Notes under the pieces: generated by a model
What the model was told of the DNA's origin: nothing
The model's input: only the letters and a program-made list of their open reading frames with translations
Database searches by the model: none
From: an uncultured Vampirovibrionales bacterium
GTDB lineage: Bacteria; Cyanobacteriota; Vampirovibrionia; Vampirovibrionales; Vampirovibrionaceae
Length of the DNA: 64,000 bases
Assembly (NCBI GenBank): GCA_964390635.1
Contig: CAYMIG010000005.1
Span: forward strand, 148,320 to 212,319
Direction of reading: 5' to 3'
Position numbers and translations under genes: made by a program
Shown here: piece after piece, positions 8,737 to 16,490 of the stretch
Layout of the letters: each line of letters starts with the position of its first letter
Numbering within the stretch: position 1 is the first letter of the stretch

Positions 8737-9951
8737 CTAGGCCTGGAACTGCCGGAAGCTGGTGCCCAGGCGGGAAGAGCTGCGCAGGGCTTGCATGGTC
8801 AGCTGCGGGTTATAGCTGGAGAGATCGGCGGCGCGTTTGGCGGCCTGCTCTTTTTCAAAGGTGGACTTGTTCCAGAAGGCGTTGAACCACACCGGGAACC
8901 AGCCGATGGCGCCGATGACGATGGCAAATCCCAGCACGGCCACCGGCAGCAGGCGGCTCTTGCCGTAGCGGGAGACCACTTCGCGGAACTCGCCTTGCAG
9001 TTTTTCGGCGGCCTGGATGATGGCCTTGTCGCCGGTGGCTTTGGCGGCTTCCAGGCTTTGCTTGTGGATGGCCTCGCCGGCGTTGATATGGCCAATCAGG
9101 CGCTCGGAGAGCTCTTTCACCGTGTCGGCCTGGTGGTTTTGGTGGGCTTTCAGCAACTGGGGCACCAGTTCCTTAATTTGGGCAATCTCTTTCTGGATGG
9201 CTTCCTCGGCGGGGGTGCTGCCGGCGCGATCCCGCAGGGTTTTCACCGCGTTCAGCAGGCCCTTGCCGTTGCCTTCCCGCAGCAATTGCTGCACGGCATC
9301 GGCGTTGTCCAGGGCGTAATTTTTCATGCCGGAGAAGGTGTGCACGGCGTTCTTTTGCAGATCCACCAACTCGATGCCGGCCACCCGCTGCATCACCTTG
9401 TTCATCACCCGCAGCAGGGGCTTGAGCATGAACAGGAAGATGGTAATGGCGGTCATATCCCGGCGCAGCACGTCGCCCACTTCGCGGAAGTCGTTGCCGT
9501 TTTTCTTGCCGCGCTCATAGGCCCGGAACAGGCGGGGACCCACGGTAAACGGGTACAGCAGCAGGATCATGGCCCCGATGGGCGGCTCGGACACCAGAAA
9601 CTTCAGCTTGCCCAGGGCCACTTCCGGGAACTCGTGGTAATCGAAGGTGGCCAGCATCTTGGCAAAGCCGCCCACGTTTTTCACCACGGTGGCCATCAGC
9701 TTGTCCACGGCGCTGCCGTTGGCGTGGCCTTCCACAAACTTTTTCACCGAGGCATCGATTTTATCCGGGGCGTTAAACAGCTTGTCGGCCAGCTCGGCAA
9801 AGAACCGGGTGGCGGAGCTCGTCTGCACGGTGGCCTGGCTGGCCACGGCGGCGGTCTGGGTGCTGGCGCTGCCAAAGTGCACGGCGCCGGCCAGGGGGGC
9901 GGTTTTGGGCAGCGGGGCGGTGTGCCCGGCAAAATTCACGGAGCGCATCAT
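8737..9951 (-). CDS. hypothetical membrane protein, paralog family member A
   Basis: 404 aa; hydrophobic segments (IGAMILLLYPFTVGPRLFRAY; MTAITIFLFMLKPLL) and C-terminal TM (LLPVAVLGFAIVIGAIGWFPVWFNAFW); ends …SFRQFQA; 4-nt overlap with upstream gene. Confidence 0.6.
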   Translation of the reverse strand: MMRSVNFAGHTAPLPKTAPLAGAVHFGSASTQTAAVASQATVQTSSATRFFAELADKLFNAPDKIDASVKKFVEGHANGSAVDKLMATVVKNVGGFAKMLATFDYHEFPEVALGKLKFLVSEPPIGAMILLLYPFTVGPRLFRAYERGKKNGNDFREVGDVLRRDMTAITIFLFMLKPLLRVMNKVMQRVAGIELVDLQKNAVHTFSGMKNYALDNADAVQQLLREGNGKGLLNAVKTLRDRAGSTPAEEAIQKEIAQIKELVPQLLKAHQNHQADTVKELSERLIGHINAGEAIHKQSLEAAKATGDKAIIQAAEKLQGEFREVVSRYGKSRLLPVAVLGFAIVIGAIGWFPVWFNAFWNKSTFEKEQAAKRAADLSSYNPQLTMQALRSSSRLGTSFRQFQA

Positions 9952-11327
9952 GCCTGGCCTCCTTTCCGGGCGCCATAGCCCTGGAAGGTCTGGAAACTCT
10001 GCGGACGCAACAACGGCGCCTGCGTCAAGGGCAAAGCGCCGTAGCTGGAAGCGGATTGTGGCGGTTGTTGCTGGTGTCCGGCGGCGGTGCCAGCGCCATG
10101 GGCGGTGTTCGGGGCGGAGCCGGTATCTTTCAGCAGGCGGGTGGCATTGTAGGAATCGTGGTTTTGGGCCCAGAACGCCAGCTTGATGAGGTAGGCGCCG
10201 GCCAGCGCGGTGGTGCCCACGGCGATGAGGAACTTCTTGGCCGCGATCTTCTTGAACACGCCTTCGGCCACCTCGGCCAGCTTTTGGCCCACGCCACGCT
10301 CGGCCCAGACGGACTCGGCCAGGTCGCTCCAGCGTCGGATGTTCTTGAGCACGTGGCCAATGGGCTCGTGGGCGGCCTTGGAGGCATCGTCAAAGGCCAC
10401 GTGGATGTAGCCGGAGCGGTGCAAGGGGCGTTCCACGGCTTCGGTAAAACCGTTGCGGGCGTATTCGTAAGGCTTGAGTCGGTAATTCCGGTTGAAGCCG
10501 GTCAGCACTTCCTCGAACTGCTCGGCCAGCTGGCCCAGCAGCTTGTTCTTTTCCCGTCCGCTGGCGGTGTTGAATGTGGCATCCACGTAGCGGGCCGCCC
10601 AGTCGTCGATGTACTGGCGGTAGTTCTGCACGGCGTCGGTGCGCAGGTGCTCCGGCAGCATGTGCTTGGCATAGTCGGGATCCTGGAACATGCTGGCAAT
10701 GTATTTTTGCACGGCTTCCTGGTACTTGTTGGCGCCGATTTCGCCCACTTCCTGGCCCAACCCGGACTGGTTCAGGTGGGCCTGGAAACCGTGGGTCATT
10801 TCCTTCAGGTTGTGGTAGCCCAGCTCGGTGGCGGACTTGCCGAACATGCGGCGGGACACCGCGAAGATGATGGCCGGGATGGTCAGTACCCCGGGGCCGG
10901 TGGCAAACTCCCGCTTGGTCTCTTCGTTGAAGTTGACCCAGTTCAGGCCGCGGATGTTCTTGTGCAGCCAGATTCTGGCCTGATCCTTGAAGGGCAGGTT
11001 TTGCACCTCTTTATCGCCTGCGGTTTCGTACTTGATGCGACCGGTGGTCAGGGAGGTGCCCACCCGGGGCAGCCACATGGCGATGGCGTCCTGGGCCAGG
11101 AAGGCCCACACAAACACTTCGGTAATCTTTTGGAAGGTGGGAATGAGCTTTTCGGTGGCGCTTTGCAGGGCCTGGTTGCCGGCCCGCATGGCCACGTTGC
11201 CCAGGCCGCCGGAAAACCGGGGCGCCTGCGGATGCACCGGGAGGCTGGCGGCCACCGGGATACGGGGGGCGGCGCCTGCAAACTGGCGGGGGCGATGTGA
11301 CGCTGTTACATCCACTTGCGGAATCAT
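9948..11327 (-). CDS. hypothetical membrane protein, paralog family member B
   Basis: 459 aa; hydrophobic segments (VFVWAFLAQDAIAMWLP; GVLTIPAIIFAVSRRMFGK) and C-terminal TM (FLIAVGTTALAGAYLIKLAFWAQN); tail …LLRPQSFQTFQGYGARKGGQA. Confidence 0.6.
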   Translation of the reverse strand: MIPQVDVTASHRPRQFAGAAPRIPVAASLPVHPQAPRFSGGLGNVAMRAGNQALQSATEKLIPTFQKITEVFVWAFLAQDAIAMWLPRVGTSLTTGRIKYETAGDKEVQNLPFKDQARIWLHKNIRGLNWVNFNEETKREFATGPGVLTIPAIIFAVSRRMFGKSATELGYHNLKEMTHGFQAHLNQSGLGQEVGEIGANKYQEAVQKYIASMFQDPDYAKHMLPEHLRTDAVQNYRQYIDDWAARYVDATFNTASGREKNKLLGQLAEQFEEVLTGFNRNYRLKPYEYARNGFTEAVERPLHRSGYIHVAFDDASKAAHEPIGHVLKNIRRWSDLAESVWAERGVGQKLAEVAEGVFKKIAAKKFLIAVGTTALAGAYLIKLAFWAQNHDSYNATRLLKDTGSAPNTAHGAGTAAGHQQQPPQSASSYGALPLTQAPLLRPQSFQTFQGYGARKGGQA

Positions 11328-11678
11328 TCGGGTCTCAGTCTACTTTCGTCCGTCGGGCGTGAACCATTCGCTAGTTGGGGCTTTTCTATTAAAGCCGTGC
11401 ACTATAAAAGAACATCAACCGGTTCTGGTGCTAGCTTGTGAACAATTATTAAGGCCGGATTTGGGGCCCGCTCCCCAGGCGGGTTTGGGTCGCATGGGGC
11501 CAGGCAATGCCGCGTTCTGTTAGGTCGTTCGACACGGAAAAAATCGCTATATTATAGAAGCCAAATGGGTGGGCCCCGGCTTGTAAAGAATTCTCAATAA
11601 AATGACACCGGTTTTTTTGGAGGGGTTTAATTACTATGGATAGCTTCTCTTTATAGAGTAGGTTGGCTTTTTTCCTTT

Positions 11679-13112
11679 ATGCAACCCACGTTCCTCCCTC
11701 TACAGCAGCCTGTAATATCGCGCCGCGTGCAATTTGGCGGGCCTCTTGAAGCGCTCTCCAACGTCATTGGCGTGATTGACAGCAATCGCATCATTGAGTT
11801 GACCTCGACCGACATCATCGGCATGTGTTTCCCGAGGACGGCGATTGAGGCCAAAAAGCGCGGCCCGGATGCCGCCCGCGAAACCGCCATCCGCGAACTG
11901 AGCGGCCTGGTGGGCAACATGTTCCTGGTGGGCTGGTTCAGCAAGCTTTTCCTGAAGATGCTGGGCAACCGGGTGAACCGCTACAACCCGCATGGCATCC
12001 CCGCGTCGGCCTGGATGAACATCGAGAACATGCAGGCCTTTGGCAAGATTTACGAAGCCATCCTGCGCGATCCGGGAACCAAAAACGCCCAGCAGGCCCG
12101 GGCTAAATTCGTGCGCGCGGTGCTCTCAGGCCTGGAGTCCGCCGACAAGCACCTGGGCGCCAACGCCCTGCTGGATGCGGCCAAGGTGCTGGATGGCGAG
12201 GTGCGCGACAAGTACCTGCAAGAGATCCAGAAAAATGCCGCCGAGGGCCGCTTGCCCAAAGAAGTGCTGGAACGGCTGGCCGGCTTCTTCGATCTGCGGG
12301 ATTCCCGGGCCGCCGCCGATGTGGCGGGCACCGTCAACTTTAACCAGAAAGCCCGCGAGCTGGTTGCCGCCGCCGAAAAACACCACCAGCGCCAGGGGCT
12401 GGCCGGGGCCTTCGATGCGGCCCAGGCATTCGTCAAGACCCGCCTGCGCCTCAGCCTGGACGAGCTGCGCAGCGCTGAGGACGAATTTGCCCGGCTGGTG
12501 GATCGCGAGGCCCTGGGCGGCTACCTCAGCAAAGAAGTCAACCTGGTGCACAACGGCGAGGTGCTGACTGGCGGCAAGAGCCGCGATGCCATTCTGCGGC
12601 AGCTCAAGCACTTCCTGGAGCAGTACGTGGATCGTGCCGCCGAAGGCGCCGCCGGCAAGGGCTGGCAGGATGCGGTGCTCGAAAAACTGCTGGGCCAAAG
12701 CAAAAATACCGGCTTCCTGGCCCGGTTTGTCCCGCAAATTGACGACGGCCTGATGCAGGCTGCCCGCAAGTCCAAGTGGGCCTACACCTGGGTGCCGGTG
12801 CTGATGGCCATTTGCAGCTCCATTTCGGTGGCCTTCTACAACAACTGGCTGACCCGCAAGAAGATGGGCGGCAAGAACATTTCTCCCTACGAACTGGGCC
12901 TGGCCCAGAAGATGGGCAAGGCGGATGCCCTGATGGGTTCCCAGTCCGCCGTTCCAGCTGGCAAGCCGCAGGCCCAGACGGTGCCGGGCGTCTTTGTGAT
13001 GCCCACGGCGACCAATCCCGCTGCCCACGGCACGGGCCTGCGCCGTCCGCAGGGCGCGTTTGCCCAGTTCCAGAACGGACGTACCATGCATGCCGGAGGG
13101 CCTACCGCATGA
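11679..13112 (+). CDS. hypothetical membrane protein, paralog family member C
   Basis: 477 aa; LVGNMFLVGWFSKLFLKMLGNR mid segment, C-terminal TM (WAYTWVPVLMAICSSISVAFYNNWLTRKK), tail …LRRPQGAFAQFQNG…; start codon context weak, true start may lie downstream. Confidence 0.55.
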   Translation: MQPTFLPLQQPVISRRVQFGGPLEALSNVIGVIDSNRIIELTSTDIIGMCFPRTAIEAKKRGPDAARETAIRELSGLVGNMFLVGWFSKLFLKMLGNRVNRYNPHGIPASAWMNIENMQAFGKIYEAILRDPGTKNAQQARAKFVRAVLSGLESADKHLGANALLDAAKVLDGEVRDKYLQEIQKNAAEGRLPKEVLERLAGFFDLRDSRAAADVAGTVNFNQKARELVAAAEKHHQRQGLAGAFDAAQAFVKTRLRLSLDELRSAEDEFARLVDREALGGYLSKEVNLVHNGEVLTGGKSRDAILRQLKHFLEQYVDRAAEGAAGKGWQDAVLEKLLGQSKNTGFLARFVPQIDDGLMQAARKSKWAYTWVPVLMAICSSISVAFYNNWLTRKKMGGKNISPYELGLAQKMGKADALMGSQSAVPAGKPQAQTVPGVFVMPTATNPAAHGTGLRRPQGAFAQFQNGRTMHAGGPTA

Positions 13113-13906
13113 TGCCCAGCCTGTCCCATTCGCCATTCCAGCCCACCGCCCGTTTGGCGGCCCGTCCCGTGGCCCCCAAGTTTGGCGGCGCGGCCAGCAT
13201 GGCCTTCGATATGGTCGGCAAGGCCGCTTCCGAGATGGCCGGCAAAGCCGGGGCCGAAGCCCTGGGCAAAGCCAGCATGGCCAACTTCAAGGTGAGCGGC
13301 CTGATGCGTTTCCTGGACTTCCAGGAGCTGGCCTCGGCCACCATCAACCAGATCAAGGTCATCTACGGCTTGTGCATCATGTCCCGCATCCTGGCGGCCT
13401 CCACCCGCAGTAAAAACGAGGTGCGCGAGGTGGCCACCCGCGATTCCATGGGCTTCACCTTCTGGTTCTTCGCCACCCCGATGATCCAGCGCCTGTTCCT
13501 GCGCTTCTTGTCGCCCAAAGACCTGCGGCCCGGTCTTATTGTGGAAAAGGCCAAGCCGGCGGCCACCGGCGGCGGCTTGATGAACACGCTCAAGCGGCTT
13601 TCCTGGGAAATCAGCCCGCTGGCCCGCTGGGAGATTCCCAGCGCCCACCAGGTGAAGGATCGCATGGCCCACGCCTTGCAGGCGCTGGAAAAACAAGGCA
13701 TCAGCCACAGCGACGAAGCCTTCATCAAGATGGAAAAGCACTTCAAAAACCTCATCAAGTGGCGCAGCCTGGCTACCGGCCTGGGGTGGGCCATCACCAT
13801 CGCCCTGCTCGGCGTGGGCATCAACCTGTACAACATCTACATGACCCGTCGCAACCTGGAGCGCAGCATGAAAACCGGCGCGCCCATGCCCACCGCCGGC
13901 CACTAG
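13109..13906 (+). CDS. hypothetical membrane protein, paralog family member D (short)
   Basis: 265 aa from ATG overlapping stop of C (ATGA); FTFWFFATPMIQRLFLRFLSPK mid segment and C-terminal TM (LATGLGWAITIALLGVGINLYNIYMTRRN) resembling C. Confidence 0.55.
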   Translation: MMPSLSHSPFQPTARLAARPVAPKFGGAASMAFDMVGKAASEMAGKAGAEALGKASMANFKVSGLMRFLDFQELASATINQIKVIYGLCIMSRILAASTRSKNEVREVATRDSMGFTFWFFATPMIQRLFLRFLSPKDLRPGLIVEKAKPAATGGGLMNTLKRLSWEISPLARWEIPSAHQVKDRMAHALQALEKQGISHSDEAFIKMEKHFKNLIKWRSLATGLGWAITIALLGVGINLYNIYMTRRNLERSMKTGAPMPTAGH

Positions 13907-15095: not shown

Positions 15096-16490
15096 TTAAG
15101 ACATGGGCAGCATGGCGGCTTCGTTTTGCCGGCGCAGGTGGGCGGGAATCAAATCCTGCTGGATGACCGTTTCATAGGTTTCCCGTTGCACCAGCACATG
15201 GCTTTGCCCGTTTTCCACCAGCACCACGGCGGGCCGGGGGAAGCGGTTGTAGTTGGAAGCCATGGTGTAGTTGTAGGCGCCGGTGCCGTAAACCACCATC
15301 ACGTCCCCGGTTTCCACCTGGGGCACCGGCAGCGAGGGAATCAGCCAGTCGCCCGACTCGCAGTACTTGCCTACCACGGTGACGGTTTCCGCCGCCGGCT
15401 GGTTCAGCTTGTTGGCGATTTCCGCGGTGTAGGCGGCCTGGTACAGGGCCGGGCGGATGTTATCGCCCATGCCCCCATCCACCGCCACGTACTTGCGCAC
15501 GCCCGGAATCTCCTTCAGGCTGCCCACCGTGTACAGGGTCAGCCCGGCGGTGGCCACCATGCTGCGGCCCGGCTCCATCAGCAGGCGGGGCAGGGGATAA
15601 TCCAGTTTTTTGGCGTAGGCCACCAGCTTGGCGGTAATGCGACGGACGGCATCCGGCACGGCGGGGGGATCGTCCTGGCCGGTATACATCACGCCCAGCC
15701 CGCCGCCCAGATCCATGTCGTCCAGCACCAGCCCGTCGTATTGCTCCCGGATGTTGTAGTAGATGTTCATCATGATTTCCACCAGGTCTTCGTAGGGCTT
15801 CACCTCGAAGATCTGGGAGCCGATGTGCGAGTGCAGCCCGCGCAGGCGGATGGATTCCTGGTAGGGGCCGGTAATCAGGTCGATGGCCCGGGACAACTGG
15901 CTCAGATCGAAGCCGAACTTGCTGTCGGACTGGCCGGTCTTGATGTAGTCGTGGGTGTGGCACTCAATGCCCGGGGTAATGCGCAGCAGCACGTCAATCT
16001 GCTTGCCGTGGGCGCTGCCTACTTCGTGAATCAGTTCCAGGTCGCGGAAGTTGTCCGCCGAAATGCGGCCCACGCCCGCGCTGACGGCCAGTTCCACCTC
16101 TTGCGGCGACTTGTTGTTGCCGTTAAAAAGCACCCGCTCCATGGGGAAACCGGCCTGCAGGGCGGTATAAATCTCCCCGCCGGAGACCACGTCCAGGCCC
16201 ATGCCTTCCTGCTCCATCAGCTTCACCAGGCCCATGCTCATGTTGGCCTTGCAAGCATACAGCGGCAGGCTATCGGCGGGGTACTCGGCCCGCAGGGCTT
16301 CCCGGTAGGCCCGGGCGGCGGCGCGCAGGGTGGCTTCATCCAGCACGTAGAGCGGGGTGCCATGGGTGCGGGCCAGTTCCACCAGGTTGACGCCGCCCAC
16401 GGTGGGCTGGTTATCGGCGTCTACGGCATAGCTGATCGGTTTCAAAGCGGTGTTGGGCGCGTTCAGATCGGTTGACGACATCGGACTCAT
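15096..16490 (-). CDS. lysA: diaminopimelate decarboxylase
   Basis: 464 aa; PLP-dependent fold III decarboxylase motifs (YACKAN, GGGLG, EPGR, CESGD). Confidence 0.9.
   Translation of the reverse strand: MSPMSSTDLNAPNTALKPISYAVDADNQPTVGGVNLVELARTHGTPLYVLDEATLRAAARAYREALRAEYPADSLPLYACKANMSMGLVKLMEQEGMGLDVVSGGEIYTALQAGFPMERVLFNGNNKSPQEVELAVSAGVGRISADNFRDLELIHEVGSAHGKQIDVLLRITPGIECHTHDYIKTGQSDSKFGFDLSQLSRAIDLITGPYQESIRLRGLHSHIGSQIFEVKPYEDLVEIMMNIYYNIREQYDGLVLDDMDLGGGLGVMYTGQDDPPAVPDAVRRITAKLVAYAKKLDYPLPRLLMEPGRSMVATAGLTLYTVGSLKEIPGVRKYVAVDGGMGDNIRPALYQAAYTAEIANKLNQPAAETVTVVGKYCESGDWLIPSLPVPQVETGDVMVVYGTGAYNYTMASNYNRFPRPAVVLVENGQSHVLVQRETYETVIQQDLIPAHLRRQNEAAMLPMS

Follow-up and report, generated by a model that had tools for sequence, protein, structure and literature searches.

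In a 64,000-nucleotide stretch of DNA from an uncultured Vampirovibrionales bacterium (contig CAYMIG010000005.1; the whole stretch is referred to here as the window), four genes, A to D, form a divergent cluster. As judged by their sequence profiles, the four encoded proteins are distant paralogs that make up one family with two subtypes, the C-type (B and C) and the D-type (A and D). The family is undescribed, its members are helical and membrane-anchored, and it is probable that C-type and D-type modules pair into a hetero-oligomeric complex of the cell envelope that resides in the cytoplasmic membrane. The initial annotation of this DNA had delimited the four genes and had recognized two pairs with ATGA overlaps. 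Both the list of open reading frames (ORFs), from which the following lines are taken, and our reading of the sequence confirm this assignment, and the C, D and B products are identical in the gene calls on independent assemblies.

8737..9951, minus strand: gene A, 404 amino acids, D-type, downstream member of the minus-strand pair
9948..11327, minus strand: gene B, 459 amino acids, C-type, upstream member of the minus-strand pair
11679..13112, plus strand: gene C, 477 amino acids, C-type, upstream member of the plus-strand pair
13109..13906, plus strand: gene D, 265 amino acids from the ATG at 13109, D-type, the minimal module

The initial annotation had suggested paralogy of the four proteins. 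Pairwise alignment failed to detect it: BLASTP among A, B, C and D gave nothing significant, the best expect value (E) being 0.07. In contrast, the comparison of family profiles by hhalign yielded significant similarity above the chance level. For this comparison, narrow profiles were built from orthologs of each gene in syntenic loci, and broad C and D profiles from the matches returned when the C-family profile was searched exhaustively; there were ten orthologs each of A and B from syntenic loci, and 13 homologs of C and eight of D. A and D match over their full length with the narrow profiles (probability 96%, E 1.2e-8) as well as with the broad profile (95%, E 2.4e-8). This is the only pair for which the narrow profiles were sufficient, the other links required the broader ones: B and C are marginal with narrow profiles (E 1.4e-3), but residues 32-189 of B align with residues 13-133 of the broad C profile (92%, E 6.1e-7), A matches the broad C profile (80%, E 1.4e-5), and the broad C and D profiles match each other (64%, E 6.7e-5). 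Moreover, in the window the hidden Markov model (HMM) of the broad D-type matches A at 5.5e-7 and C at 2.3e-4, and the C-type HMM matches D at 9e-5; the two models found no further paralog in the 64 kb. The C and D families are collinear in a MAFFT alignment that covers an FGG motif, a helical hairpin and a transmembrane (TM) segment, the residues R100, R106, E107, K217 and N242 (D numbering) are invariant in the A, C and D families, and the AlphaFold2 (AF2) models of C and D share the same architecture. That the cluster might consist of four unrelated hypothetical membrane proteins, their resemblance being merely compositional, is in keeping with the BLASTP result; this explanation is nevertheless barely credible, since the profile matches are significant and collinear (E 2e-8 to 7e-5), the invariant polar residues align, and both module types occur within single natural proteins. 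Together with the conservation of the cluster in 11 loci, these findings bear out the proposed paralogy.

The joining of both module types in one protein, as found in gut and groundwater relatives, is one indication of how the two subtypes belong together. In Melainabacteria bacterium GWA2_34_9, a 555-amino acid ORF is matched by both C (6e-12) and D (1.5e-8) of the window and thus, by sequence, joins a C-type and a D-type module in one chain. Such fusions account for about 25 of 150 top representatives, and a metagenome scan with the fusions returned 195 fused relatives, among them human-gut contigs and apparent rumen samples. Two tandem fusion genes, each C-type plus D-type, are present in 24-25 of 59 long loci. 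Where the modules are encoded separately, the order is the same: in the window as well as in 10 other loci, a C-type gene is directly followed by a D-type gene (B before A, C before D), and all four genes are kept in the identical divergent arrangement in 11 orthologous loci, among them L016 with its different gene neighbourhood. The synteny of the block, one of the points that the initial annotation had left to be checked, is therefore conserved. MAFFT places the D family on the N-terminal module of the natural C-D fusions. A homology search with the fusion alignment returned a single C-D fusion, P0073. In the same locus (L021), 8 kb upstream of P0073 and separated from it by two tetratricopeptide repeat (TPR) genes, lies a divergent paralog (377-1852, plus strand); its C-terminal third holds a D-type module (broad D HMM, E 2.6e-9) and is preceded by an unrelated region of about 330 amino acids.

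The exhaustive search with the C-family profile returned at least 273 representative clusters at 50% identity. All organism-labelled loci are from Vampirovibrionales or 'Melainabacteria', except for one labelled Coleofasciculaceae (contig DATNPJ010000027.1, a metagenome-assembled genome of a 'Coleofasciculaceae cyanobacterium'). This label is probably wrong since the gene order there, fliP-fliO-fliN-rpsT-GT9-GT9-TPR-ABCD-cdaA-lysA, is of the Vampirovibrio type. Among the organism-labelled loci, the family is thus confined by its sequence distribution to the Vampirovibrionia ('Melainabacteria'), i. e. to non-photosynthetic cyanobacteria including gut species.

The four proteins had been said to match no recognized family, and this assessment holds: A to D have no match in Pfam, NCBIfam, PADLOC or PHROGs, and 22 fusion proteins have none in Pfam or NCBIfam. 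When the PDB sequences were searched with profiles from the alignments of the A, B and C families, the matches were no better than noise and were for the most part to helical bundles and to fusions with cytochrome b562, and Foldseek against the PDB detected no structural relative (best E 1.1). Neither type of search places any of the proteins in a known family, and we found no description of them in the literature searched. With models of moderate quality, the family appears as an undescribed one that lacks a recognizable structural relative in the PDB. The earlier idea of a novel membrane system is supported to the extent that an undescribed membrane-anchored family is encoded here in two translationally coupled pairs. 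Anti-phage defence and phage-derived proteins were also considered, but the lack of PADLOC and PHROGs matches gives them no support.

Module architecture, gene junctions and the divergent spacer

The AF2 models of C (predicted local distance difference test score 71, predicted template modelling score 0.65) and D (73 and 0.56, respectively) suggest a common plan. The N-terminus is disordered and is followed by a long helical hairpin, a variable helical middle part, which in C includes one beta-hairpin, and one very long C-terminal helix with the TM segment. In the models, C continues past this helix with a long disordered tail, whereas D ends about 10 residues beyond it. The disordered tail of A, B and C is rich in proline and glutamine and contains an aromatic motif. 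The hairpins and the C-terminal TM helices are located as follows (KD, Kyte-Doolittle value; Hessa, sum on the Hessa scale in kcal/mol):

9400..9591, minus strand: A hairpin, approximately residues 121-184, turn PRLFRAYERGKKNGNDFREVGDVLRRD, aligns with the D and C hairpins
10848..11138, minus strand: B hairpin region, approximately residues 64-160, with the invariant residues of the B-family alignment
11781..11966, plus strand: C hairpin, residues 35-96 (helices 35-61 and 63-96), turn PRTAIEAKKRGPDAARETAIRE, from the AF2 model
13322..13507, plus strand: D hairpin, residues 72-133 (helices 72-99 and 102-133), turn SRILAASTRSKNEVREVATRD, from the AF2 model
8884..8952, minus strand: C-terminal TM helix of A, approximately residues 334-356, KD 2.36, Hessa 0.1
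10173..10232, minus strand: C-terminal TM helix of B, residues 366-385, KD 1.73, Hessa 2.4
12780..12836, plus strand: TM helix of C, residues 368-386, followed by FYNNWLTRKK, within a long helix (358-395) of the AF2 model
13766..13828, plus strand: TM helix of D, residues 220-240, followed by LYNIYMTRRN

All four proteins of the window have the turn motif (P)R-x5-7-R-x2-6-RE-x3-R(D/E) and a C-terminal TM segment capped by N..T.(K/R)(K/R). Invariant residues cluster at the hairpin: R140, R147, D154, R156, E157, D160, R164 and D165 in the A family, and P52, R53, T54, R61, D64, R67, E68, T69, R72 and E73 in the C family. In B, the hairpin turn holds a conserved insertion of about 45 amino acids, YDP..DP..PF..GLNWVNF.EETKRE.ATGPG, and the motif D..AMW.PR of B aligns with D.IGMC.PR of C. 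An (R/K)F(G/S)G motif ahead of the structured part is common to all 11 B sequences and to the majority of the C and D sequences, and 5 of the 11 A sequences have it as well.

These alignments also refine the features on which the initial annotation had relied. The similarity of the C-terminal TM helices with their aromatic and basic caps is real and aligned, and on a Hessa-type scale the C-terminal helix alone is clearly membrane-spanning (0.1-3.4 kcal/mol). The mid-protein hydrophobic segments are present as well, but they are only marginally hydrophobic. The basic amphipathic motifs that were said to follow them are homologous in B, C and D, where they form the end of hairpin helix 2; GPRLFRAYERG of A, however, is the end of helix 1, and the true counterpart in A is LKPLLRVMNK. 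Finally, the tail motif assigned to A, B and C is well conserved in the C family as GAFAQFQ but loose in the A and B families; a related motif, (V/I)F.(D/E)F, stands at the end of many fusion proteins.

Both junctions within the gene pairs read GC-ATGA-TG, so that stop and start codons overlap by 4 nt, and a Shine-Dalgarno sequence lies 7-9 nt upstream of the A and D starts inside the preceding gene:

9948..9964, minus strand: B/A junction, Shine-Dalgarno sequence AAGGAGG (9964-9958) within the last B codons, ATGA overlap
13095..13112, plus strand: C/D junction, Shine-Dalgarno sequence GGAGGG (13095-13100) within the last C codons, ATGA overlap

The combination of an embedded Shine-Dalgarno sequence and a 4-nt overlap is present at most B/A and C/D junctions in the 10 orthologous loci checked. 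The B and C families have in common the extreme C-terminal sequence GG-x-x-A-stop; this is the coding footprint of GGAGG (Gly-Gly) and GC-ATGA, and it thus reflects a constraint at the level of the DNA rather than a protein motif.

The two pairs diverge from an intergenic region that had been described as AT-rich and about 350 bp long, in good agreement with the values that we measured:

11328..11678, no strand: divergent intergenic region, 351 bp, 48% G+C, with about 62% in the flanks and in the window
11393..11452, no strand: conserved non-coding block of about 60 nt, with TATAAA at 11403-11408 and GGTGCTAGCTTGTGA at 11427-11441

A simple scan of this region found no sigma-70 consensus and no terminator, and there was no Rfam match. 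In nine orthologous spacers, the 60-nt block has 23 invariant columns, including TATAAA and G.TG.TA...T.T.A; the proteins flanking those spacers are only about 35% identical. The block occurs once in the window, and its conservation makes it probable that it serves the divergent operons jointly as a promoter, operator or 5' leader. Readings of it as a sigma-70, sigma-28 or sigma-54 promoter were rejected since the standard spacings do not fit.

A putative envelope complex and its alternatives

Fused genes and translationally coupled genes are classically taken as a sign that their products associate physically. Based on the C-D fusions and on the coupled genes, we infer a physical pairing between C-type and D-type modules, with the hairpins and TM helices as the probable contact sites, and since modules of each subtype recur in twos, a complex of four modules is suggested. 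We propose that the products of the cluster form one hetero-oligomer in the cytoplasmic membrane, with two modules of each subtype, and that a co-regulated divergent promoter would provide the subunits in matched amounts. At the ends of the disordered termini, short conserved motifs would most likely serve to dock a partner protein, for which the product of the gene next to A is the obvious candidate:

7312..8718, plus strand: membrane-anchored TPR protein (Pfam TPR), 468 amino acids, possible partner only

The TPR gene adjoins A in 12 Vampirovibrionales loci, and in 11 of the 59 distant loci a TPR homolog is encoded within 10 kb. The complex as a whole would have a structural or scaffolding task in the cell envelope that is specific to this lineage, and it would not be part of flagellar type III export. 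The orthologs of A to D are 30-43% identical, as compared to 36-57% for FliN, GT9 and the TPR protein and 65-89% for FliP and LysA; thus, the four genes are among the faster-evolving ones in this region, and a structural or interaction role fits better than an enzymatic one. It is tempting to go further and to think of a four-module machine of the cytoplasmic membrane with a fold absent from the PDB, present in all orders of the non-photosynthetic cyanobacteria and thus also in species of the human gut, partnered by the TPR protein and serving a core envelope or motility function, e. g. as a lineage-specific flagellar-motor, cell-envelope or division scaffold for which other bacteria use unrelated proteins; in this extended form, the proposal is rather doubtful.

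Several observations weigh against the proposed complex. Fusion and translational coupling are indirect signs of an interaction between the modules, drawn from sequence, and the scaffolding role is derived from negative evidence. The comparisons of A with B and of B with D are not directly significant (E 0.04-0.1), so that these proteins are linked through C and D only. The AF2 models are of moderate confidence and were based on shallow alignments (14-24 sequences). As to the topology, the hairpin helices reach only 4.5-7.6 kcal/mol on the Hessa-type scale, and a positive-inside analysis gave similar numbers of lysine and arginine residues on both sides of the TM segment. Fusions close to the Vampirovibrionales have no linker TM segment, which favours an even number of passes per module, but the gut-type fusions, with their hydrophobic linker helix, conflict with this. 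Moreover, both tandem gut fusions resemble C plus D rather than B plus A, and the count of two plus two may therefore come from independent duplications; in some loci there is only one fusion within 10 kb. Finally, TPR neighbours are common in these genomes, and the one next to A may be coincidental.

The initial annotation had connected the cluster to the flagellar-type export gate nearby. By analogy with PflA/PflB or FlbB, the proteins would then form a flagellum-associated accessory system, a lineage-specific scaffold of the motor or the export apparatus, perhaps together with the TPR protein. The FliR, FliQ, FliP, FliO and FliN-like proteins encoded at 532-4573 have strong Pfam matches, the block is about 4-5 kb from fliN-O-P(-Q-R) in 11 Vampirovibrionales loci, with the TPR gene adjoining A, and in V. 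chlorellavorus FliK and FlgD are encoded about 8 kb downstream. Membrane-anchored TPR proteins serve as flagellar scaffolds in other phyla. However, fliNOPQR and the block are set apart by rpsT (seen in orthologous loci), two heptosyltransferase (GT9) genes and the TPR gene, and CdaA and LysA are encoded next to the block in 18 loci as compared to 11 for the fli genes, so that the proximity of the latter reflects a general collinearity among relatives, whose FliP proteins are 82-89% identical. The linkage is lost in locus L016, where the intact block lies between rplA and purH, and none of the 59 distant loci has FliNOPQR within 10 kb of family members; queries with FliS and FliK gave only one weak FliK-like match in these loci (L034, E 7e-6). 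L016 does encode FliS 2.8 kb downstream of the block (15158-15661, plus strand), and no other flagellar gene was seen close to the block in loci beyond the closely syntenic group; the neighbourhood is otherwise ribosomal and purine-biosynthetic, and this may be chance. No match was found between A to D and the Pfam families FliP, Bac_export_1/2/3, FliO and FHIPEP, and no sigma-28-like motif is conserved across the orthologous spacers. V. chlorellavorus encodes a complete flagellum, whereas flagella have been lost in some Gastranaerophilales (PMC4451040), and members of the family are abundant in gut lineages, a part of which reportedly lacks flagella. Thus, neither the link to the export gate nor its description as an orphan could be upheld, and a flagellar accessory system is unlikely.

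We also regard it as quite improbable that the proteins are secreted or injected for predation, i. e. that they are effectors of the translocon or Inc type that insert a hydrophobic hairpin and helical domains into prey membranes. The disordered termini, the combination of hairpin, helical regions and TM segment, and the fast divergence relative to FliP and LysA in the same genome pairs agree with this idea, and Vampirovibrio is indeed a predator (PMC4451040). But the family is abundant in human-gut and rumen contigs, taken to be from Gastranaerophilales-type Melainabacteria, which are not known predators; the organisation in two subtypes is conserved and includes fusions; secretion-system genes are not consistently adjacent; and no match to translocators of the IpaB/SipB/YopB type or to secretion substrates was found by sequence or fold. 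To a small ion-conducting or transport complex, such as a channel or a stator-like assembly of four homologous subunits with conserved charged residues near the membrane, we give a similarly small chance: each module has only one robust TM segment, the large variable soluble helical inserts and the disordered tails are atypical of transporters, and no fold match rises above background. Still less probable is membrane remodelling of the ESCRT-III/PspA/Vipp1 type, in which helical-hairpin proteins with an added TM anchor would polymerise on membranes; the scores do not exceed the background of helical hairpins in general, a sequence signal is lacking, and the C-terminal TM anchor and the conserved charged turn set A to D apart from these proteins.

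The envelope complex that we favour can be set beside several known systems. Paired or fused subunits of small transporters follow the same Rosetta-stone pattern, with homologous genes that are adjacent, translationally coupled and fused in other lineages, and it is this coupling of homologous genes together with the fusion of both modules elsewhere that predicts a heteromer; A to D have no sequence or fold relation to transporter families and differ from the paired small transporters by the single clear TM segment per module, the large soluble helical parts and the disordered tails. The translocator pairs of type III secretion systems and their TPR chaperones (IpaB/IpaC-IpgC, YopB/YopD-SycD) are likewise paired helical proteins with hydrophobic helices and a TPR protein nearby, and the short N-terminal motifs of A to D could be docking sites as in these translocators. 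Unlike them, A to D have no Pfam or fold match and occur in loci without nearby type III genes, and their 468-amino acid TPR neighbour is membrane-anchored and not a small cytosolic chaperone such as IpgC or SycD. The chlamydial Inc proteins share with A to D that they are lineage-specific, fast-evolving helical membrane paralogs with paired hydrophobic helices. The domain of the Inc proteins is bilobed and strongly hydrophobic, and its loop is short, whereas the helices of A to D are weakly hydrophobic, separated by a conserved charged turn of at least 20 residues, and followed by a real TM segment at the C-terminus. PflA/PflB of the Campylobacterota and FlbB/FlcA of the spirochaetes resemble A to D as a lineage-specific membrane or periplasmic set near flagellar genes with a membrane-anchored TPR protein; they are set side by side here by description only, and outside the syntenic genomes the linkage of A to D to fli genes is gone.

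Of all non-photosynthetic lineages, the Vampirovibrionia stand closest to the oxygenic cyanobacteria, and they include a commercially relevant algal predator as well as common inhabitants of the gut; to our knowledge, their lineage-specific biology is almost entirely unknown. The present family is sizeable, with at least 273 clusters at 50% identity; it has no curated model, no structural relative was found for it, and it follows a clear modular logic, with two subtypes that are always paired, sometimes fused, and often present as two plus two. If it should prove to be a core component of the envelope or of motility, it would represent a class-defining cell-biological trait; otherwise, the databases still gain a new family and fold from it, and the class Vampirovibrionia a useful marker.

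Neighbouring genes

The fli genes of the window have some unusual features. The FliQ ORF (1329-1838, minus strand) encodes 169 amino acids, of which only residues 6-75 match Bac_export_3; the C-terminal extension of about 95 residues seems to be present also in V. chlorellavorus, where the gene encodes 170 amino acids. The FliN-like protein (3029-4573, minus strand) is unusually long with 514 amino acids, and FliMN_C covers only residues 378-444; its orthologs also match SepQ_C. No flhB-like reading frame follows fliR (window 1-560, minus strand), as there are stops in all three frames; thus, fliR is the last gene of the export-gate operon in the window, and the remaining flagellar genes are located elsewhere.

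In the 59 distant loci, there is no conserved neighbour beyond subgroups. Candidates identified by eye or by BLAST are genes for pilin-like, CCA-adding-enzyme-like, SGNH-hydrolase-like and TPR proteins and a probable atp operon. The tandem fusion genes of gut-type loci face between one and five convergent type IV pilin-like genes with the prepilin motif FTLAEVLIAL, which abut them 1-6 bp from the stop; such pilin-like neighbours are present at the 3' end of the fusions in L067, L074, L076, L080-L083, L088, L089, L092, L093, L096 and L098.

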